A stretch of DNA of 64,000 nucleotides from NCBI GenBank assembly GCA_965223005.1, contig CBDCVK010000010.1, positions 489,322 through 553,321 on the forward strand. The letters run 5' to 3'. The notes beneath the pieces are model-generated. The model did not search any database and was not told where the DNA came from. It saw only the letters and a list, made by a program, of their open reading frames with translations. Shown piece after piece: positions 39,835 through 54,084 of the stretch (position 1 is the stretch's first letter; every line of letters begins with the position of its first letter). The translations under genes were made by a program, and so were the position numbers. Origin of the DNA: Terriglobia bacterium. Its GTDB lineage: Bacteria > Acidobacteriota > Terriglobia > JAJPHL01 > JAPKYU01.

Positions 39835-40584
39835 TCATCGAGCGAGCTTCCGGTAGTCCTCGGCGACGATATCAACCAGGCGGCACATTTCTTGCAGCCG
39901 GGACGTCACTCGCGCTCCCAGGCGCTCTTCGAAGGTTGCATACGTGCGGCGCTTTCCAGGCACGCCGCTCACGGGGTCTTCCTTCAGATTGGCGGTGAGC
40001 AGCGTGGGCTTCTTCTCGTTGTAGCGGTGATTGAGGAGGTAGTTAATGGTGTCTTCCACCCAGTCGGAAACGCGGTTGGCTCCCAGATCGTCAATCACCA
40101 CCACTTCGGTCTCCAGTACCGGCCGCATCACCTCACGCTCGGCGGTCAGCGCCTTCGGGTTGTAGCTGGACTGGATGCGCTTCAGCAGTTCCTGGTAGTC
40201 CAGGAACAGGACTTCGGCGCCCTTCTCGACGAGGCCTTTCAGCAGAGCCACCGTCAGGTGGGTCTTGCCGACGCCGGTCTCGCCCATCAGTAGCAGGCCC
40301 TTGCCGTCCACCAGCGGGTAGTCGGCCAGGTACTGATCCACGACGCCTAAAGCTTTCCACAGCGACTCGTTGCGCGGGCCGCCCCGCGGCGGGTACAGCT
40401 CGAAATTGGTGAAGGCGCAGGCCTGGTACCGCGGCGGAATCCGCGCCGCAGCCAGTGCGCGCTCCAGGCGGGTCTGGGTGCGGCACTCGCAGGGCACCAC
40501 GGCGTCGCCGGTTCCGCTGGAGCGCCAGCCAGTGCCCGAGCACAGCGGGCACGCCACAGATGCGTCACTGATCGGCGAGGCCAT
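39835..40584 (-). CDS. DnaC/DnaI-like AAA+ ATPase with an N-terminal Cys4 zinc-binding motif (helicase-loader family)
   Basis: CPLCSGTGW...CECR zinc motif. Walker A GETGVGKTHL, Walker B VVVIDDLG. Confidence 0.65.
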   Translation of the reverse strand: MASPISDASVACPLCSGTGWRSSGTGDAVVPCECRTQTRLERALAAARIPPRYQACAFTNFELYPPRGGPRNESLWKALGVVDQYLADYPLVDGKGLLLMGETGVGKTHLTVALLKGLVEKGAEVLFLDYQELLKRIQSSYNPKALTAEREVMRPVLETEVVVIDDLGANRVSDWVEDTINYLLNHRYNEKKPTLLTANLKEDPVSGVPGKRRTYATFEERLGARVTSRLQEMCRLVDIVAEDYRKLAR

Positions 40585-40739
40585 GGCATCCAGTCCAAGC
40601 TATCCCGACACCGGGCAAATTCCGGTCCCTACAATATCGCCTTGAACGCCATGGGTCAAAGAATGCCGAGTGTCTCCTACACAGGCGCCGGAGACGCTCG
40701 TAAACACGGTGGTAGTGGCCGGGCTTTAGCTGCTCCAAT

Positions 40740-41606
40740 TCACGGCTTTGTCTTATGAGCGCTAAGCAGAAATCCAGACACGATTCCAATGAGCTGGATT
40801 GCTGCTCGCGCTTCTACATCTGAAACGGTCGGCAGCCAAGGTCTTCCGTGTCCAGTACCCTCCTTGTTTCTGAGAGCGTTCACAGCACAACCAGTCTCGT
40901 ATAGAGCCCGCGCCAGTCGACGCTGTGGCGGTTCGGTTTGCTGTGGTGCGGTAAGTGGAGTTGCGAGCTCTAATGCTGTGAACGCCTGACCGAGCAGTGT
41001 GGGGAAGTTGGCTTGTTGAGGATACTGTCCGTAGCGTTCATAGATCACGTGAGCCGCTGTGGCCTCCAACAGGTCTTTGCCCGCGCCCACCAAGAGCGCG
41101 GCATCCTGACTTCCTCGTCGGGCACGCCGAACATACGCCTCTAGGGCGCTTGTTAACTGCACACCAGTGAGCGTGTCGATACTAGTGGGTTGGAGCTCTC
41201 CTTCCGCCGTGAGCACATACCCTTCACCGCGGAATGCGTCCGCAGCATCTGTGATTGCGTCTTCCCTGACAAAGTTGGGAGACCCGCGGCGGAATCCACC
41301 CTTTCCCCGAATCAGCGCAACCAGTGCAGCTAGGAAGACCTCTCCGCTTTCGGGAGCATTATCCAACGCCCAGCTCAACACTGCTCGAACTCTCTTCGCC
41401 TTACCGACGATTTGCCCCTGCAATTTGGGATCGCCTGCGCCCAGATCTGCGCGAGTAATCCGGAACTCGATGTCGGAATGGCTTGGCTCGCGCGTTTCTG
41501 TCTGCGCGTCGTCTACAAGGCGAGCGACCGCGGTTATGATGGCGTCACTGAGCGGCGCGTGCGGTCGTTTTTCTCGTTGATTCGTTGTCACACTTGACCA
41601 CCCCAC
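40740..41606 (-). CDS. Abortive-infection-like protein with a C-terminal Abi_C/HEPN domain (AbiJ-like architecture)
   Basis: C-terminal ...ALYETGCAVNALRNKEGTGHGRPW... carries the HEPN Rx4-6H motif (R-NKEGTG-H), in the context typical of the Abi_C family (RN..GtGHG). The N-terminal ~180 aa are unassigned. Confidence 0.5.
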   Translation of the reverse strand: MGWSSVTTNQREKRPHAPLSDAIITAVARLVDDAQTETREPSHSDIEFRITRADLGAGDPKLQGQIVGKAKRVRAVLSWALDNAPESGEVFLAALVALIRGKGGFRRGSPNFVREDAITDAADAFRGEGYVLTAEGELQPTSIDTLTGVQLTSALEAYVRRARRGSQDAALLVGAGKDLLEATAAHVIYERYGQYPQQANFPTLLGQAFTALELATPLTAPQQTEPPQRRLARALYETGCAVNALRNKEGTGHGRPWLPTVSDVEARAAIQLIGIVSGFLLSAHKTKP

Positions 41607-41642
41607 CCAATACCGATGTGAACCAGCCTAACGCAATGAAGC

Positions 41643-42221
41643 TCAGTCGCGCGGCGCCTTCTTGCAGTTCGCTGCATCCTGGCACTCCACAGCTACGCTT
41701 GGTCGCTTCGAGACCTGGCTCCTCCCCTTATTCCACAGAGCGCCAAGGACCCCCAACCACACGGTCCCGACAAACACCATGACCCAAGGGTGAACGCACT
41801 TCTCATACAGGTGAACGCACTTCTCATACAAGTTGAACAGTAACTTGACGCCTACCACGGTGAACGAACCCACGAACATATGCCACATGTGGGGCCACCT
41901 CGGCGTTGTATCCTGTAGGAAATCCTTGAGTTTCCCTTCTTGTAGTAATTCGTGGTGAAGGCGCGACCGGAAAAATCGAAAGGTGGCGACGTAATACACC
42001 CCCATCACGGTCAAGAGAAGGCCAGCGGACTCAGGCCACAACTCTTCGGCGTTTTTGTCATCAAAGCTAGCCGCGAGCAGAGCACCAACCCCAGCTGAGA
42101 AAATGGTGATTACGACCCATTGGAGTTGGTCATAGTGTCGGCTCCACTCCTGCCCATGCTGGTGCGCATCCTGGTCGGTTTTCTTTCTTTCTTTTTCCTC
42201 GTCTTCCTTTTCCACCGACAC
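41643..42221 (-). CDS. Hypothetical multi-TM membrane protein in a lower-G+C patch; carries an internal 21-bp tandem duplication
   Basis: 192 aa. Acidic N-terminus (SVEKEDEEKERKK) then 4 TM helices. LYEKCVH is duplicated (41790-41831). Codon usage is visibly AT-richer than its neighbours. Confidence 0.45.
   Translation of the reverse strand: MSVEKEDEEKERKKTDQDAHQHGQEWSRHYDQLQWVVITIFSAGVGALLAASFDDKNAEELWPESAGLLLTVMGVYYVATFRFFRSRLHHELLQEGKLKDFLQDTTPRWPHMWHMFVGSFTVVGVKLLFNLYEKCVHLYEKCVHPWVMVFVGTVWLGVLGALWNKGRSQVSKRPSVAVECQDAANCKKAPRD
41790..41831 (+). repeat. 2 x 21-bp tandem repeat GTGAACGCACTTCTCATACA(G/A)
   Basis: Read directly from the sequence. Encodes LYEKCVH-LYEKCVH on the minus strand. 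Confidence 0.8.
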
Positions 42222-45018: not shown

Positions 45019-46848
45019 ATGAAACGGGGAAGTGTTGTCCTCCTGCTTGGGCTAGTGTTCCTGTTGGTGGGGTTGTCGGGCTGCGAAATGCCCGGCAGAA
45101 AAAGGGTCCTGGTCGTTCCTCCCGTTAAACACATTCCTCCTCCTTTGCCCTTAAAGCCGGCCCCTGAGCTGGTGACCGAGAAGGTGGTAGCGGCTTCTCC
45201 CGCGCTTCCACAGCCGAATCCCGCGCAGGAGCTCATTGTCCAGAGTGAGGCCGCGTACCAGGCGGGGGTCGCAGCTTATGAGTCTGGCCACCTGGAGCGA
45301 GCCAAGCGCGAGTTTGATCAGGCGGTGGACCTCCTGCTGGAGGGGCCAACCGACCTGGCGTCCGACGCCCGGATGGAAAAGCACTTAGAAAAGCTGGTGG
45401 ACCAAATTCACAATTATGAGCTGCTGGCTCTACAGGAGGGGGACGGCTTTACCGAGCAGCGCCCTGTGCCGGCTGCGGTGGACGAAATTGCCGACCTCAC
45501 CTTCACCTTCTCCTCCAGCCCAATCCTCAAAGAGAGGGTCGAGCAGGAGGTCCGGGAAACAACCTCCGACCTTCCGCTGGTCATCAACGAGCACGTGCTG
45601 GGCTACATCAATTACTTGTCTACCCGGGGCAAAGGCGGCCTGCAGACCACGTTGCAGCGGGCTGGCCGCTACCGGGCCATGATCTCCCGCATTCTGCGCG
45701 AGGAAGGCGTACCCCAAGACCTGATTTACCTGGCTCAGGCGGAATCGGCCTTTCAGCCCTGGGCGGTTTCTCGAGCCGGGGCCCGCGGGATGTGGCAATT
45801 CATGCGCAGCCGCGGCCGCGAGTATGGCCTAATTATCAACTGGTGGGTGGATGAGCGGCAGGACCCGGAAAAGTCCACCCGCGCGGCGGCTCGCCACTTG
45901 AAAGACCTCCACCAAGCCTTCGGGGATTGGTATCTGGCGATGGCCGCCTACAATTCCGGACCCGCCAGGGTGCAACGCGCGATTCAACGAACCGGGTATG
46001 CCGATTTCTGGGAGCTGCTGAAGCGCAACGCGCTGCCGCGCGAAACCCGGAACTATGTACCGATTATCTTGGCCACCACCATCGTGGCCAAAAACCCGGA
46101 AAAGTACGGGCTCGACCGTGTCTCACCGCAATTGCCGGTGGCGCTCGAGACGGTGACAATTTCCACTCCTACCGACCTGCGGCTGATCGCCGAGACCATA
46201 GATTGCAGCGTCAATCTGCTGCAAACCGTGAACCCCAGCCTCCTCCGGCTCGTTACTCCCAAAGGGGAGTTCGAGTTGAAACTGCCTGCCGGGACGAAGC
46301 AGCGTTTCCTGGAGCAGATTGCCCGGATCCCGGAGAACAAGCGGGTGTTTTGGCGCTGGCACCGCGTGGCTCCAGGTGAGAGCCTCGGCAAGATCGCTGG
46401 CCGGTACAAGACGACGGTGGCCGCCATCGCCAAGGTCAACGAACTGAAAGTCAAGGCTCCTTTGCCGGTGAACGCCAAGCTGGTGATTCCGGTCACCAGC
46501 AGGCAGGCGGCACAAACAGGGACAGTACGATTGCGCTACCGGATCCGGTGGGGCGATACCCTGTCCGAACTTGCCGAGCGCTTCGGCGTTTCCATCTCGA
46601 ACCTCCGCCGCTGGAACCGGATCCGGGGCAGTCGCCTGGTTGCCGGGCGCTTTCTGGTCATTTACGCCAAGCAGCCGGGCACGGGTCGCACGACCTCCAG
46701 GCGGCGCTCCTCCAGCAAGGCGGGAGGAAAGGCGGTTCGCACTTCCGACGCTAACCGCAAGGAAAACAAAAGGTTAGCAAAGACCAAGACTCCCCCTGCC
46801 AACCTTCCCCTGCCCCCTGTGACTGGAACGCGCCCAGCAGTTCGTTGA
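45019..46848 (+). CDS. mltD: Membrane-bound lytic murein transglycosylase D-like (SLT domain with C-terminal LysM repeats)
   Basis: Lipoprotein-type signal ([15 protein letters not shown]). Transglycosylase motifs ([30 protein letters not shown]). Two LysM ([11 protein letters not shown].., [13 protein letters not shown]..). Confidence 0.85.
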
Positions 46849-46901
46849 AATCATGCCCCCCTTCCTCTCTGACTTTTTCCTGTGCCACATCTAGTCCGCT
46901 C

Positions 46902-46930
46902 TTGACAGCTTGGCGGCAGTGGAGTTAATT
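46902..46930 (+). promoter_or_regulatory. Sigma70-like promoter: -35 TTGACA (46902-46907), 17-bp spacer, -10 TTAATT (46925-46930)
   Basis: Perfect -35 hexamer with canonical spacing, about 95 bp upstream of the GTG start of the H1-like gene. Confidence 0.4.
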
Positions 46931-46964
46931 TCGCGCGGGGAAAACGTTTATCCGCGCATTTGTT

Positions 46965-46995
46965 TGACCAGGGTTCTCGTTGATCAGGGTTCTCG
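46965..46995 (+). promoter_or_regulatory. Two adjacent 15-bp direct repeats TGA(C/T)CAGGGTTCTCG in the 5' leader of the H1-like gene
   Basis: tgaccagggttctcg t tgatcagggttctcg. Preceded by a GC inverted repeat GCGCGG..(13)..CCGCGC (46933-46957). Confidence 0.35.
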
Positions 46996-47020
46996 AAAAT
47001 CTATACCAAAGCGGTAGTGA

Positions 47021-47509
47021 GTGGAGCACATGATGGCGATCGACTATCGGCAGGAGGAAGACAGCGAGATGGAAGAGCTGGGGTTAGGCTCCCAACACGA
47101 GGAAGAAGCGGAGGGGGAAACACTGGAACAAGAAGTGATCGGCGGCGTGCCTGAGCTGTTCCCACCTGTTCCCGTGCCTCTGCCAGCGCCGGCCGCTCCG
47201 GCACCCCCAAGGGTCCGGAGGGCAACGAAGAAGCCGGCCCGCAGGCCAGCCAGGAGAAAGCCGGCCCGCAGGCCAGCCAGGAGAAAGCCGGCCCGCAGGC
47301 CAGCCAGGAGAAAGCCGGCTCGCAGGCCAGCCAGGAGAAAGCCGGCTCGCAGGCCAGCCAGGAGAAAGCCGGCTCGCAGGCCAGCCAGGAGAAAGCCAGC
47401 CCGCAGGCCGGCCAGGAGAAAGCCAGCCCGCAGGCCGGCCAGGAGAAAGTCGGCTAGAGCCAGACCCAAGAGGAGGGCGAAGGCCAAGAAAATCCGGCGG
47501 CGGCGCTAG
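47021..47509 (+). CDS. Histone H1-like / AlgP-like basic protein: acidic N-terminal domain plus C-terminal (KPARRPARR)x8 repeats
   Basis: 162 aa. The N-terminus is rich in E/D (EEDSEMEEL...HEEEAEGETLEQE). A PVPLPAPAAPAPP linker follows. Then 8 copies of KPARRPARR and a KRRAKAKKIRRRR tail. Confidence 0.7.
   Translation: MEHMMAIDYRQEEDSEMEELGLGSQHEEEAEGETLEQEVIGGVPELFPPVPVPLPAPAAPAPPRVRRATKKPARRPARRKPARRPARRKPARRPARRKPARRPARRKPARRPARRKPARRPARRKPARRPARRKPARRPARRKSARARPKRRAKAKKIRRRR
47231..47446 (+). repeat. 8 x 27-bp in-frame tandem repeat AAGCCGGCCCGCAGGCCAGCCAGGAGA (minor variants)
   Basis: Read directly from the sequence. Encodes KPARRPARR x8. Confidence 0.85.
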
Positions 47510-47717
47510 GCTAGGCCACGGCAGGACAAATCTTTTGCTGCCCGACTGCTTCCTGATTGGCGTTCCGGCGATTTTTGCCGCGCTGGGCTTGCTGAGCAGG
47601 TGGCTGAGCAACCTTGATTTTCGGCGCAAAGGCAATCCTAGCCGTCCCGGGCTCTGCGGCTTGCTGGCGCCGGCGGAATACCCTTCCGCTTCCGGGCAAG
47701 CGCCGTAAGCCAGCTTG

Positions 47718-47939
47718 CTAGGCCGTTTCCACTGCTTTTTCCACCGCAGCCCGGCAACGGGAGTAAAGTTTCAGCAAACTCTCAGCTACGTCTTCGCTCT
47801 TCTCCGGCTTGGCCTGGAATCCTGCCGAGACAGCCGGGCGGTCGTATCCGGTTGTTATGGCGATGAACTTCATCAAGTCCAGGGCAATATCCTCCACCCG
47901 CCGCGTGCCCGATCCCACCGCAATGGATTCTTCCGGCAT
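47718..47939 (-). CDS. Hypothetical small protein
   Basis: 73-aa ORF with non-repetitive, protein-like composition (EDIALDLMKFIAITTGYDRPAV...). No recognised motif. Confidence 0.3.
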   Translation of the reverse strand: MPEESIAVGSGTRRVEDIALDLMKFIAITTGYDRPAVSAGFQAKPEKSEDVAESLLKLYSRCRAAVEKAVETA

Positions 47940-47965
47940 GTGTGCTCTCCTAAAGATTTCGTCTG

Positions 47966-48484
47966 ATGGCGCACAGCTACTATACTTGCTGTGTGGAAGA
48001 CTGGGAAAGCGTCGCGTTACCGGGACCGGCGCTGGACTACGACTGGGTAACAGATCGGCTGGCCGTGGGCGGCGCCATTTGGACCCGCAGAAACATGCAA
48101 TTGTTGGCCGCCGCTGGCATCACCCATGTCGTGAACATGCAGCTGGAGTTCAACGACTCGCAGATCTCCGACGGCACCGGCGTGTCCGTGCTGTGGAACC
48201 CCTGCGATGACGATTTTCTGGAAAAGCCACCGGAGCTGTTTCGGCAGGGAGTGGAGTTCGCCCTGCATGCCTACCAGGAGCCTGGCTCGCGGATCTACTT
48301 TCACTGCTCGGCCGGCGTTCACCGTGGGCCCATGATGCTGCTGGCGTTTCTGAGCGCCCAGGATATGAGCATGGACGCGGCCGTGGCCCTGATCCGCAGC
48401 AAGCGTCCCGGCGCCGACTTCCCCGCCGTCTACCGGAACAGCGTCGAGCGTTTCCTGGCCACCTACCACAGGCTGTCCAAGTAA
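47966..48484 (+). CDS. Dual-specificity (Cys-based) protein phosphatase
   Basis: HCxxGxxR P-loop (FHCSAGVHRGP) in a 172-aa DSP-sized protein. Confidence 0.75.
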   Translation: MAHSYYTCCVEDWESVALPGPALDYDWVTDRLAVGGAIWTRRNMQLLAAAGITHVVNMQLEFNDSQISDGTGVSVLWNPCDDDFLEKPPELFRQGVEFALHAYQEPGSRIYFHCSAGVHRGPMMLLAFLSAQDMSMDAAVALIRSKRPGADFPAVYRNSVERFLATYHRLSK

Positions 48485-48593
48485 CTGGGCTCGTTTTCCC
48501 GAGACCAGCCAAGCTTCCAGAATGGGCTGCCGATTCCGGAACTTGCCCCACTGGGCCCGGAATTCGCCGCATTTGAGCTAAGATGGCGCCGTC

Positions 48594-49409
48594 ATGCCCA
48601 GGGCCCTCTTCCAGGTGCAGCGCATGCGCGGCGGAGCCCAATCGCACCTGATTTTCTGTGAAAATGGCAGCTTCTATGTCGTGAAGTTTCAAAACAACCC
48701 CCAGCATGTCCGTGTTTTGGCCAATGAAATGCTAGCTACTTCGCTGGCAAACTTTCTTGGGCTACCGGTCCCCGAGTTTGCCGAGGTGGAGGTGTCAGCG
48801 GAGCTGCTTGAGCGCGCTCCAGAGCTGAGTTTCCAGGCTGTCCAGGGACGTGTGGGTTGCGCCGCCGGCCGGCACTTCGGCTCGAAGTTGCCGGTTAATC
48901 CCTCGCGCGAACCACTCTACGATTTTGTCCCGGACCAGACGCTGGCGCTGTTAGCGAATCGCCAAGCCTTCGCCGGCATGTTGGCCTTTGACCAGTGGAC
49001 GTGCAATGCCGACGCGCGCCAGGCAGTGTTCTGTCGAGCCCCGGATTCGGGGGGTCGTTACCGGGCTCTGATGGTCGACCAGGGCTTTTGCTTCAACAAT
49101 GGCGAGTGGAATTTCCCCGACTCGCCTCTCCGCGGGCTGTATCCGCGGTTGGTCGTTTATGAGGGCGTGACGGGCTGGGACAGCTTTGATCCCTGGTTGA
49201 CGCTGTTGCGCGAGATGGACTGGCGCGTGGCGGAAGAGTTTGCCGGCCGGGTTCCGCCCGCCTGGTACGACGCTGAGGACGCGGCCTTACAGAAGTTGGT
49301 GGAAGCTCTGGACCGTCGCCGCCGCCGCCTTCCAGAACTCCTGGAGGCCGTGCGGCGGAGCCCGAAGAATCCGTTCCCCAACTGGCGATTGCAACTGGCC
49401 GCCAGGTAA
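48594..49409 (+). CDS. HipA_C-like kinase-fold protein with a non-canonical catalytic motif (possible pseudokinase)
   Basis: GGAQSH.. (compare the HipA Gly-rich loop AGAQxK), YVVKF...NEMLATSLANFLGLPVPEF (compare HipA yIlKf...nE..rLA...Gi.vpe), and FDQWTCNADARQ. The last aligns to the HipA catalytic loop, but DHxKN is replaced by ARQAV. Confidence 0.4.
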   Translation: MPRALFQVQRMRGGAQSHLIFCENGSFYVVKFQNNPQHVRVLANEMLATSLANFLGLPVPEFAEVEVSAELLERAPELSFQAVQGRVGCAAGRHFGSKLPVNPSREPLYDFVPDQTLALLANRQAFAGMLAFDQWTCNADARQAVFCRAPDSGGRYRALMVDQGFCFNNGEWNFPDSPLRGLYPRLVVYEGVTGWDSFDPWLTLLREMDWRVAEEFAGRVPPAWYDAEDAALQKLVEALDRRRRRLPELLEAVRRSPKNPFPNWRLQLAAR

Positions 49410-49548
49410 GGAGTGGCGGCCAACGGGCCGCGGATAACCTCCGGTGCATAGCCGCCATAGAATAGCCGGAGATCAGAAGCGCCGCGGGCAAGCTACGGCG
49501 GTAGTCAGGAAGCAGGCGGCAGTGAGGTAGCAGAGGGAGGGGTAGCAG

Positions 49549-50334
49549 ATGGAAACATTTCGATTTCAGTTGCTGCGCTACGTGCCCGATCCAGTCAAGA
49601 ACGAATTTATCAACATCGGCGTGGTGCTGCTGGACGACCTCAGCCATTCGCTGGGCGTCCGCATGGCCAGTGAGGCCGACCTGCGCCGCGTGCGCTGTGT
49701 CCATCCGGGCGCCGACCTGGACTTGCTTCGTTCCTGGCAGGCCACCGTGGAAGACGAACTGGCTCGCCAGCCCGAGGCGGCAGGCGAGTGGCTGCGTTCC
49801 CTGGAGGAGGTGGCGTCCCACTCGCTTCGCTGGACCTCGCCGGCGGGTTGCCAGAGCCGGGACGCACCGGTCGCACTGCAGGAACTCTACGAACGGTTCG
49901 TGGCCTCACCGCCGCGGGCCGCTGTGGGCGTCCGTCCTGGAACCGCTGCCTGGGTGAAGCGGGAGGCCGACAGCGTATTCCGGGCTTCGGGGTTGCTGGA
50001 GCATTTCCAAAGCGGAGTTTGGGCCCAGCGCTTCACCTATCCGGGCGACCCATTCCGCATTCACTACGCCTATAGCAATGGCGCGCCTCGCTACATCCAC
50101 ATGCTCTCTCTTGAGCATTCGATACAGCAGGCCAAGGTCCTGGCATTCACCTTCGAACGCATCCAGCGCAACGGGCAGGGGGCTCTGACCTCGGTGGTGG
50201 AGCCGGAACCCCGGCCCATCCCGACGGTCCAGTTCACGCGTCAGTTGCTGGAACAGAGCGGCATTGAAGTCGTTTCACTGGACCGCATCCAGGCCTTGGT
50301 GCGGAGGGCCAGGGAGGAGCTCCGTCTCGTTTAG
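49549..50334 (+). CDS. DUF3037-like protein
   Basis: N-terminus METFRFQLLRYVPDPVKNEFINIGVVLLD matches the characteristic DUF3037 signature (..LRYvPd...gE.iNiGVVL.). Confidence 0.55.
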   Translation: METFRFQLLRYVPDPVKNEFINIGVVLLDDLSHSLGVRMASEADLRRVRCVHPGADLDLLRSWQATVEDELARQPEAAGEWLRSLEEVASHSLRWTSPAGCQSRDAPVALQELYERFVASPPRAAVGVRPGTAAWVKREADSVFRASGLLEHFQSGVWAQRFTYPGDPFRIHYAYSNGAPRYIHMLSLEHSIQQAKVLAFTFERIQRNGQGALTSVVEPEPRPIPTVQFTRQLLEQSGIEVVSLDRIQALVRRAREELRLV

Positions 50335-50463
50335 CGATCGCGTTGACCAACCTTCCGCGTTTCTATCTGCGAAATCTGTGTAAATCTGCCGATTGATTCC
50401 TGTCTGGTTTTAAGAAACACTGATCAACTGACGGATTTCTGTTAGGACTGAGGAGGTCCCCTA

Positions 50464-51435
50464 GTGGGTGAGGTTATTCTGCCGGCGGCGGTGCGCGTGC
50501 CGGGCTCCAGCGCCAACCTGGGGCCGGGGTTCGACGTGCTGGGCCTGGCACTGGAAATCTACCTGGAGGCGCGAGTCGACCGGTCGACACCCGGCAAACC
50601 CCCGGTGCGGCTCGCCGGTCCCCACATCGAAGGAATCTCCACCGACGATTCCAACCTGGTGCTGACCGCTTTTCGCACTGCCTTCCAGCGCACGGGCAAG
50701 CAGGCCCCCTCAGTCTGCCTGGAACTGCGCAACGGGATTCCTCTGACACGAGGATTAGGCTCCAGCGGCGCGGCCGCCGTGGCGGGAGCCACGCTTGCCA
50801 ACTACTGTGGCCGCCTGGGGTTGTCCCGAACCGACATGGTGGCGCTGGCCGCGGAACTGGAAGCCGGTCATGCGGACAACGTGGCCGCCTCCTGCCTGGG
50901 TGGTTTGGCGGTGGCCTGCCGGGGTGGCAGCGCGGATGGCGGCGCCGCGGGGGGAATTCAGGTTCTGGCCTTGCCCTGGCCGCCGGAGATCGTACCGGTG
51001 CTGGCGATTCCGCAGTTACACCTCGAAACCCAGGAGGCGCGCAGCGCGCTGCCGAACTCCTACAGCCGCGCCGACGCCGTGTTCAACCTGCAGCGGGTAG
51101 CACTGCTGGTGGGGGCACTGGCTTCCGGGCGCGCGCCCGAGCTGGCCGACGACTCGGAACTGTTCGCCGCCGCGCTCGCCGACCGCCTGCACCAGCCCTA
51201 CCGCGCCCCTCTCGTGCCGGGACTTCGCGAAGCGCTCGGGCTCCGTGTCCCCGGCCTGCTCGGCGTGGCTCTGAGCGGGGCAGGCCCTTCGCTGATTGCC
51301 TTCGTCCGGGGGGCGCCTCAGCCCACCGTGGCCGCTCTGGAGCAGCTTTACCGAGACCTCGGGCTCACAGCCGAGGTGCGGCCGGTGAAGGTAGACACCG
51401 AGGGCGCCGTCGTGATTGATTCATTGACGATTTGA
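50464..51435 (+). CDS. thrB: Homoserine kinase (GHMP kinase family)
   Basis: PGSSANLGPGFDVLGLAL and GLGSSGAAAVAG GHMP motifs. Confidence 0.85.
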   Translation: MGEVILPAAVRVPGSSANLGPGFDVLGLALEIYLEARVDRSTPGKPPVRLAGPHIEGISTDDSNLVLTAFRTAFQRTGKQAPSVCLELRNGIPLTRGLGSSGAAAVAGATLANYCGRLGLSRTDMVALAAELEAGHADNVAASCLGGLAVACRGGSADGGAAGGIQVLALPWPPEIVPVLAIPQLHLETQEARSALPNSYSRADAVFNLQRVALLVGALASGRAPELADDSELFAAALADRLHQPYRAPLVPGLREALGLRVPGLLGVALSGAGPSLIAFVRGAPQPTVAALEQLYRDLGLTAEVRPVKVDTEGAVVIDSLTI

Positions 51436-53058: not shown

Positions 53059-54084
53059 ATGGCAATCCTGACTGTATCTCGACAGTTCGGCAGCCGCGGG
53101 GATGACATTGCCCGGGAGCTGGCGCGGCGCACCGGATTCCGGCTCCTCACCCGAGAAATTGTCGAGCAGCAGATGCGCGAGCTGTGCGGCGTGGAACCGC
53201 CAGCCCTAGCCACCGAAAGTGAAGAACCGGACGTCAACGGGAGTCCTAATGGGCGTCCGGCCGCAGAAGTGACCCTCTACGCCGACCTGGTGACCACCGT
53301 GGTGGCGGACCTGGCAACGGTTGAGGATTTTGTCTTGGTGGAACTGGGCGGCCAGTGCCTGTTCCACGAGGCGTCCTGCGCAGCGCACCTGCGCGTGGTG
53401 GCGCCGCGCTCCTGGCGCGCTGCGACGGTGGCCGCTGAGCTGGCACTGGCTCCGCCCGCCGCTGCGCAACTGGTGGCTCGCCAGGACGTCGCCCAGGCGC
53501 GGTATCTTCGGATGGTTTTCAGGCGTAGCGCGGAGCGAGCGGATCTCTACCATCTGGTCCTGAACACCGCGGCGCTGGATCAGGATCACGCCATGGACCT
53601 GGCGATGTCTGCCGTGGATTCCATTCGGTTGCGCAGCGCGGGCCGGCTTTCGGCCGAGGCCGGCGAGCGCATGAAGGTGCAAAGCAAGATGCGCCTGGCC
53701 CGGCACTTTGCCGACCTGCCCGGCTCGGCCCTGCTCGAACGCGTCTCCTTTGCCCACCCCAGCGAGCGCGTCTTCGCCCGCCTGATGGACTTTTATCGCA
53801 TCGAGTGGGAGTACGAGCCGCGCACCTTCCCCATCGAGTGGAACGAGCAGGGCGTCGTGGTGGAAGCCTTCACGCCCGACTTCCACCTACCCGAACTGGG
53901 CTTGTACGTGGAATTGACCACCATGAAGCAATCCCTGGTCACCCGCAAGAACCGCAAGGTCAAGCGGCTGCGTGAGCTGCATCCGGAGGTCAACATCCGC
54001 ATCTTCTACCAGAAGGACGTCGAAGACTTGATCTTCAAGCTGGGAGCGCAGTACCAGCGCGAAGAGTTAAGCGTAGGGAGTTGA
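53059..54084 (+). CDS. Fusion of a cytidylate-kinase-like family N-domain with a C-terminal DUF559/Vsr-like (PD-(D/E)xK-fold) endonuclease-like domain
   Basis: N-terminus MAILTVSRQFGSRGDDIARELARRTGFRLLTREIV (Cytidylate_kin2-type P-loop-like). C-terminus FTPDFHLPELGLYVELTT...RKNRKVKRLRELHPEVNIRIFYQKDV follows the DUF559 pattern (vDF....l.iE.dG....D..R...L...G..v.Rf). Confidence 0.5.
   Translation: MAILTVSRQFGSRGDDIARELARRTGFRLLTREIVEQQMRELCGVEPPALATESEEPDVNGSPNGRPAAEVTLYADLVTTVVADLATVEDFVLVELGGQCLFHEASCAAHLRVVAPRSWRAATVAAELALAPPAAAQLVARQDVAQARYLRMVFRRSAERADLYHLVLNTAALDQDHAMDLAMSAVDSIRLRSAGRLSAEAGERMKVQSKMRLARHFADLPGSALLERVSFAHPSERVFARLMDFYRIEWEYEPRTFPIEWNEQGVVVEAFTPDFHLPELGLYVELTTMKQSLVTRKNRKVKRLRELHPEVNIRIFYQKDVEDLIFKLGAQYQREELSVGS

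Follow-up and report, generated by a model that had tools for sequence, protein, structure and literature searches.

Do three neighbouring genes on one strand of an acidobacterial chromosome form a single phospho-regulated conflict module, or does only part of the group belong together? The question is raised by a stretch of 64,000 nucleotides (hereafter the window) from a Terriglobia bacterium (assembly GCA_965223005.1, contig CBDCVK010000010.1, positions 489,322 to 553,321 of the forward strand), in which genes for a phosphatase, a kinase-like protein and a DUF3037 protein follow each other on the plus strand. An earlier note on this DNA had taken all three for a toxin-antitoxin or other conflict-type module. 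For the second and third genes the guess is right, as they are homologues of a validated toxin/antidote anti-phage pair, while the phosphatase is poorly supported as an integral part. The novelty of that answer is limited, since the PADLOC library already lists the pairing as PDC-M66. New here are a variant of the pair that spans the class, is passed on vertically and is under strong constraint, an alternative catalytic loop that is itself conserved and shows unexplained switching between Asp and Asn, a putative leaderless-type promoter of its own, and the phosphatase neighbour in this lineage. The three genes are:

47966..48484, plus strand: Cys-based dual-specificity phosphatase (DSPc), 172 amino acids (aa), with H113-C-S-A-G-V-H-R120 and Asp82/Asp83 (Pfam); its membership of the module is doubtful
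48594..49409, plus strand: HipA_2 kinase-fold protein, 271 aa, of the short 'R-Q loop' subfamily (Pfam, PADLOC, AlphaFold2 model, hhalign)
49549..50334, plus strand: partner protein, 261 aa, DUF3037 (about 1-120) followed by a restriction-endonuclease-like PD-(D/E)xK fold (about 133-258); presumed antidote or regulator of the kinase

The coordinates, lengths and motifs first reported for these open reading frames (ORFs) match exactly. The phosphatase contains the motif FHCSAGVHRGP, the kinase-like protein has CNADARQAVF as residues 137-146, and the DUF3037 protein starts with METFRFQLLRYVPDPVKNEFINIGVVLLD. Pfam places the first product in DSPc (7.1e-11, 42.5 bits against a cutoff of 33.5), with the HCX5R site intact, and the third in DUF3037 (1.6e-15, 57.8 bits against 22.6), bearing out both calls. 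The kinase-like protein had been labelled HipA_C-like, and here the fold stands and the family does not. HipA_C reaches only 0.01, under its cutoff, and therefore the correct family is HipA_2 (PF20613; 2.2e-11, 43.9 bits against 27). All three reading frames are intact, and purifying selection acts on each, with ratios of nonsynonymous to synonymous substitution rates (dN/dS) of 0.12-0.33 against orthologues at 65-78% identity.

The pairing of a HipA_2 kinase with a DUF3037 protein is itself an already known system. PDC-M66, a two-gene candidate system in PADLOC, is the same as DS-6 or 'HipAD', an E. coli pair which DefensePredictor validated as anti-phage (PMC13092281). In that study the D139A change in DS-6A abolished defence, and AlphaFold3 predicted a complex of DS-6A with DS-6B and, more weakly, DNA binding by DS-6B. 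In the Retron-Sda1 operon, deletion of the HipA-like kinase led to loss of phage defence and deletion of the DUF3037 gene was toxic; the authors' conclusion was that the DUF3037 protein neutralises a toxic kinase (PMC12548924). The A and B models of PDC-M66 match the kinase (2.1e-7) and the DUF3037 protein (1.1e-12) of the window, these being matches to the models themselves and not calls by PADLOC's procedure. Profile-profile comparison by hhalign, with DS-6 sequences taken from the supplement of PMC13092281, aligned DS-6A with the kinase family at 98.5% probability over 205 columns, and DS-6B-type partners with the DUF3037 protein at 98.2% over 234 columns, the C-terminal domain included. 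The AlphaFold2 model of the kinase-like protein (predicted local distance difference test score, pLDDT, 84) matches CtkA, Fam20C, PI4KIIa, HipA and HipT in Foldseek. Taken together, the Pfam, PADLOC, hhalign and fold matches make the family membership of genes 48594-49409 and 49549-50334 solid. The window DUF3037 protein as a query against plasmids gave one weak match only; canonical plasmid pairs were reached only with DS-6A as the query. A literature search on the name 'HipAD' returned unrelated papers only.

The likeness to DS-6 extends to gene order, with a small HipA_2 kinase followed by a DUF3037 protein bearing a C-terminal nuclease-fold domain, and to both proteins along their full length. 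The ATP-binding Lys, the Glu, the catalytic Asp (D139 of DS-6A, D140 here) and the metal-binding Asp are common to both kinases. However, identity is only 22-29%, the catalytic loop of the window kinase is a short N-x-D-x-R-Q without the canonical D-R...N, and the Pfam model covers only the N-terminal half of the window kinase. Additionally, a GEWNFPDxPLRG segment and an RRRxR...PFPNW tail are specific to the clade of the window's relatives. The two groups also differ in inheritance. Canonical pairs are patchy and plasmid-borne, often beside insertion sequence (IS) elements or integrases, with genes overlapping by 4 bp; the window pair is chromosomal, syntenic and vertical in Terriglobia, with 140 bp between its genes, and shows neither that tight coupling nor a mobile or defence context. 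It belongs to a distinct branch of the family, chromosomally fixed and vertically inherited.

Hip kinases have been defined by four core motifs and an adjacent antitoxin (Gerdes et al. 2021, PMC8262856), in a phylogeny that does not treat this subfamily and whose text contains neither 'phosphatase' nor 'Acidobacteria' nor DUF3037. The Gly-rich loop (R-G-G-A-Q-S-H, residues 12-18) and the Mg2+-binding motif (V-D162-Q-G) of these kinases are present and invariant in the clade, the former near the N-terminus as in short Hip kinases. With HipBA and HipBST the window pair has in common the kinase superfold (Foldseek 3dnt, 7vkb, 8ezr) and the logic of a toxin with an adjacent antidote. It differs in having no HipB-type helix-turn-helix or HipS partner, and Pfam found no helix-turn-helix domain in the partner protein. 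The solved Hip kinases give no sequence-level match to the window kinase. In fact, a profile of the kinase family against the PDB sequences found nothing relevant, and the link to HipA and CtkA came from fold comparison alone. Unlike HipA, the window kinase lacks the catalytic motif D-x-H-x-K-N (D309 and N314 in E. coli HipA), of which the Asp (D140) is present and the His, Lys and Asn are not. The best structural matches, CtkA (H. pylori JHP940, PDB 3akk/3akj), Fam20C and PI4KII-alpha (E 2e-5, template modelling score about 0.5), resemble it at fold level only, at 12-18% identity; unlike the window kinase they are secreted or eukaryotic kinases and have no DUF3037 partner.

Homologues of the kinase-like protein number more than 7000. 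Relatives were counted in at least 592 species-representative genomes, with Acidobacteriota accounting for each of the 80 best. Among the 90 loci sampled on the kinase side (L001-L090), the DUF3037 gene stands directly after the kinase gene in 89, so the linkage by which the earlier note's proposal was to be judged is strong, and pairwise distances of kinase and partner correlate at r=0.89. The partner diverges faster than the kinase (34% vs 54% identity), and its gene has its own ribosome-binding site. Its C-terminal domain has a restriction-endonuclease-like core fold. A Pfam scan of 56 DUF3037 partners found no named C-terminal domain such as DUF1829. D167, H184, S187, K196 and E218 are conserved in the clade but are not arranged as a canonical D...(D/E)xK; Lys196 alone among them is common to DS-6B-type partners, and D167 is clade-specific. 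Compared with NucS/EndoMS, Can2/Card1 and type II restriction endonucleases, which have the PD-(D/E)xK fold, the canonical catalytic triad is not evident in the window partner.

On balance, and with moderate confidence at most, we favour the reading in which the window pair works as a toxin-antidote or defence-type HipA_2/DUF3037 unit, with the phosphatase as a neighbour. By homology, the DUF3037 protein would bind the small kinase directly and keep it inactive. Once released, the kinase would phosphorylate a cellular target and cause growth arrest, which in the characterised relatives amounts to phage defence. The known Hip kinases act on aminoacyl-tRNA synthetases. The nuclease-fold domain of the partner may bind DNA, for autoregulation or sensing. 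The pair would be transcribed from its own promoter, probably as a leaderless mRNA. The phosphatase and a small 73-aa gene beside it would represent a separate pair inserted alongside, although the phosphatase could act on the products of the kinase.

The window kinase has the Gly-rich R12-G-G-A-Q-S-H18, Lys31, Glu45, the segment F-D133-Q-W-T-C-N138-A-D140-A-R142-Q143 and the metal-binding V-D162-Q-G. Its loop was aligned in 17 sequences, comprising acidobacterial relatives and nine canonical members (DS-6A and plasmid kinases of Pantoea, Pseudomonas, Vibrio, Photobacterium, Chondrinema, Peribacillus and Alisedimentitalea). K31, E45, D133, N138 and D162 are invariant in all 17, and D140 aligns with D139 of DS-6A both there and in hhalign. 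The canonical loop reads N-x-D-R, a variable stretch and an invariant Asn, in the pattern N-x-D-R-x(3-12)-N-[ILVM]-[LF]; the window has N-A-D-A-R-Q-A-V-F instead. An exhaustive search of 1.84 billion cluster representatives returned 2771 clusters at E<=1e-3, 497 of them at E<=1e-30. The loop could be read in 128 of the 150 best representatives, with R-Q in 126 and Asp in 113, and with Gly at position 140 in three, a residue that the clade loci, which carry Asp or Asn only, do not have. A large subfamily thus has N-x-D-x-R-Q as its conserved alternative loop, the window kinase being in the majority state, and the form with Asn is characteristic of an abundant sub-clade in Terriglobia. An initial view of a degenerate loop with Asn at the catalytic position was reversed by this representative search. 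The earlier description of a degenerate, perhaps pseudokinase, loop survives in so far as the loop differs from that of HipA and of canonical HipA_2 kinases, but not in its degeneracy. Since the R-Q loop is conserved and K31, E45, D140 and D162 are kept, an active, mechanistically variant kinase appears more likely than a dead one.

Several observations nevertheless weigh against a toxin-antidote function. In the acidobacterial clade the Arg, 7-14 loop residues and the Asn of the canonical loop are absent, and an invariant R142-Q143 stands in their place. The Pfam HipA_2 model aligns with canonical kinases end to end (1-239, at 223-267 bits) and with the window kinase only at positions 9-123 of 240, stopping at the loop. 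The same holds for three of four acidobacterial relatives, which with the window kinase match only to about 90-123, at or before the loop, at 43-60 bits; L075, the fourth, gives a weak alignment over most of the model. Residue 140 is Asn in 82 and Asp in nine of 91 clade sequences, and a neighbour-joining tree shows at least four independent switches between them. Such switching does not sit easily with an essential catalytic base, and suggests that the side chain of residue 140 has a hydrogen-bonding or metal-binding role rather than that of a strict general base. The 140-bp spacer breaks the tight coupling of the two genes found elsewhere. Four distant R-Q kinases, on short contigs, have no DUF3037 gene nearby, and kinases of this type may therefore lack intrinsic toxicity. 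For this pair, a toxic and active kinase, its substrate, its neutralisation and a role in defence would all be carried over from relatives at 22-29% identity. Finally, the core-like, syntenic and strongly constrained inheritance is atypical of toxin-antitoxin or defence genes.

That last point leads to the first rival, a domesticated housekeeping or regulatory pair, engaged in cellular signalling or nucleotide sensing, for which phosphotransfer is not strictly needed and which is no longer, or never was, a toxin-antidote system. We consider this rather unlikely, although much in the distribution speaks for it. Besides the breadth of at least 592 species genomes, synteny is kept, in the order SLT/LysM, H1-like basic protein, kinase and DUF3037, with the SLT/LysM gene upstream on the same strand in 67 of the 90 loci. 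In the two distant loci checked (L006 and L008), the small gene between SLT/LysM and kinase encodes an acidic-then-basic H1-like protein, as in the window. The pair has diverged together with its flank (kinase vs SLT/LysM distances, r=0.75, Mantel p=0.001). The kinase-like gene is the most constrained of those tested, with dN/dS of 0.12-0.13 vs 0.27-0.38 for thrB; it also lies below SLT/LysM, and it diverges less (0.35 vs 0.41). No defence genes were found in the immediate flanks of the window pair and no defence island in its wider flanks. The earlier remark that the trio lacks a metabolic context holds, but its surroundings are a conserved syntenic block of housekeeping type rather than a defence island. 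Toggling between Asp and Asn at the catalytic position and the existence of solo R-Q kinases point the same way. Against domestication, the two proteins are homologous over their full length to a validated pair of toxic kinase and antidote. The partner also changes much faster than the kinase, a frequent trait of antitoxins, toxin-antidote dependence predicts just such strict pairing, and the Asp is kept in the window.

Before the phosphatase can be placed, the transcription signals around the kinase gene have to be considered:

48536..48578, plus strand: two tandem units of about 22 nt, CCGGAACTTGCCCCACTGGGC / CCGGAATTCGCCGCATTTGAGC, with a TTCCGGAA palindrome, upstream of the kinase gene; L001 has three units
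48579..48584, plus strand: -10-like hexamer TAAGAT, whose end is 9 nt from the kinase ATG, without an intervening Shine-Dalgarno sequence, in register with the clade-wide element
49410..49548, plus strand: spacer between the kinase and DUF3037 genes, 140 bp (gap table, alignment)

The clade-wide element, TTGCNN and TANNNT separated by 16 to 18 nt, lies within -80 to -1 of the kinase start in 54 of 86 loci vs 0.5% of background windows, and in 45 of those 54 its -10 part ends 8-9 nt before the start codon. A promoter-like element 9 nt from the ATG, without a Shine-Dalgarno sequence, suggests that the kinase/DUF3037 pair has its own promoter and a separate leaderless-type mRNA. The tandem units at 48536-48578 are a candidate operator or displaced -35 region. 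The TTCCGGAA palindrome was also tried as a clade-wide operator and rejected, its strict form occurring in only seven of the 86 loci; the conserved signal is the -35/-10 pair. No RNA family came up when 46800-50600 was scanned with Rfam at E<=1.

The gap between the kinase and DUF3037 genes is a few bases in the main clade and 35-606 bp of variable short-repeat sequence in the sub-clade of the window; the alignment of these short-repeat insertions includes 606 bp in L003 and 436 bp in L007. The spacers (L003 3935-4539, L007 6802-7236, window 49410-49548) contain tandem or dispersed repeat units of the CACGGAT/CGCAGAT type, resembling the repetitive extragenic palindromic (REP-like) or miniature inverted-repeat transposable (MITE-like) intergenic elements of Acidobacteria.

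The second rival takes up the reading of the earlier note, as a three-component phospho-switch in which the phosphatase reverses autophosphorylation of the kinase, or phosphorylation of its target, as a second enzymatic antidote. The genes are neighbours on the same strand. As in bacterial DSPc-type Cys phosphatases (PF00782), the HCX5R loop and the upstream general-acid Asp are intact, and the Pfam score is above the threshold; H113-C114...R120 and D82/D83 are invariant in eight relatives, and the gene is under purifying selection. Additionally, DSPc lies directly upstream of the kinase in two lineages of differing upstream context, the window sub-clade and L050/L075, the gene before DSPc in the latter being xseA-like and not SLT/LysM. 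It also occurs about 5 kb upstream of the kinase in L058 and L088, and for a rare family this recurrence is above chance.

However, the linkage counts argue otherwise. DSPc is directly upstream in only eight of the 90 kinase loci, and 80 of the 90 have none within 6 kb. On the phosphatase side, among 43 relatives with enough flanking sequence only one has the pair nearby, encoded on the opposite strand. The usual neighbour is a different one, as a giant secreted protein follows directly downstream of phosphatase relatives in 71 of 80 loci. SLT/LysM, the 73-aa gene (minus strand) and DSPc occur without a kinase in L161 and L097. A 110-bp spacer separates phosphatase and kinase genes in the window, a weak hairpin resembling a terminator lies at the stop codon of the phosphatase gene (48475-48490), and the kinase has its own promoter-like element. 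Two refinements did not hold. A tie between the Asp/Asn state and the presence of the phosphatase was rejected, since Asn goes with DSPc in L011, L050 and L075, and L007 combines Asp with the absence of DSPc, leaving the state uncorrelated with DSPc. A phospho-Ser in the Gly-rich loop as the phosphatase target is weakened by the change of Ser17 to Ala in the DSPc-linked L050 and L075. The literature searched documents no role of DSPc phosphatases with HipA-type kinases. The three-component switch is therefore an unlikely account of the locus; a functional link between phosphatase and pair has about the same small chance, and would not be its defining feature.

The linkage counts, the separate promoter-like element and the weak hairpin lead us to read the phosphatase and the 73-aa gene as a small unit of their own that came to lie next to the pair in this lineage. 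The latter gene is:

47718..47939, minus strand: conserved 73-aa gene of no assigned function, divergent from the phosphatase gene; called in L001-L005

It has dN/dS of 0.12-0.32 and a good Shine-Dalgarno sequence, AGGAG, 7 nt upstream of its ATG, and Pfam and PADLOC scans gave no match. Because its homologues stand beside DSPc without the kinase pair in L161 and L097, it seems to be the partner of the phosphatase rather than of the kinase.

In the metagenome loci sampled on the phosphatase side (L091-L170), for example L104 6459-12443, the phosphatase relatives are usually followed, at a distance of no more than about 4 bp, by a very large secreted protein of up to about 2000 aa (CarboxypepD_reg-like, repeat-rich). 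A LexA/XRE-like regulator often precedes the phosphatase relative, and the whole forms a conserved cluster.

A bolder combination would make the Terriglobia pair a domesticated core-genome descendant or ancestor of HipAD/PDC-M66, whose N-x-[D/N]-x-R-Q active site, with Asp and Asn interchangeable, serves a function beyond ordinary phosphotransfer (nucleotide-dependent switching or other chemistry), and to which the Asp-keeping lineage of the window has added a dedicated dual-specificity phosphatase to make a reversible phospho-switch; we give it little credence. Equally improbable is a true pseudokinase that binds nucleotide or a partner without phosphotransfer, for although the canonical Arg, the invariant Mg-binding Asn and 7-14 loop residues are missing, the Pfam alignment stops at the loop and most Terriglobia relatives have Asn in place of Asp, the window keeps D140, K31, E45 and D162, dN/dS is 0.12-0.13, and the near-invariant R-Q loop with its Asp majority speaks for a conserved active site and not for decay.

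The Terriglobia pair bears on questions beyond this genome. The HipA-like/DUF3037 pair has only lately been recognised as anti-phage. The alternative loop and the Asp/Asn switching at a residue essential in the E. coli system amount to a natural experiment that could tell which parts of the kinase site are important. The pair also raises two alternatives, domestication of a defence or toxin-antitoxin module for a cellular role, or an origin of the mobile defence systems from a housekeeping pair. PADLOC-style models match the clade partially and with modest E-values, and copies in surveys of soil Acidobacteriota may thus be mis-scored either way.

The pair is flanked in the window by housekeeping genes, namely an elongation factor G (EF-G) paralogue, SLT/LysM, thrB, thrC, a cytidylate-kinase-like gene, a phosphoribosyltransferase (PRTase) gene and TldD/PmbA. 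One further gene had been placed next to the trio:

47021..47509, plus strand: basic repeat (H1-like) protein gene

It is indeed near, but the 73-aa minus-strand gene separates it from the phosphatase gene. Its product has an acidic N-terminus and a Lys/Ala/Pro-rich basic tail with about 11 tandem 9-aa repeats of the PARRKPARR type, and its 27-bp DNA repeats produce a series of artefactual terminator-like matches on the minus strand. With counterparts at L006 5507-5797 and L008 5429-5740, the H1-like protein may belong to the syntenic block. The cytidylate-kinase-like protein at 53059-54084 (plus strand; Cytidylate_kin2, 2.8e-22) bears a C-terminal extension with a weak Phage_endo_I-like match (0.012, under the cutoff). 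Just upstream of the EF-G paralogue, 39835-42221 on the minus strand encodes an IstB-like IS21 helper ATPase (1.5e-13, with a weak PADLOC DrmD match), a protein with an Abi_C abortive-infection domain (6e-12) and a 192-aa ORF without a Pfam match; this group, which lies outside the syntenic block at a distance of about 6-8 kb from the pair, may represent a small insertion of mobile or defence type.

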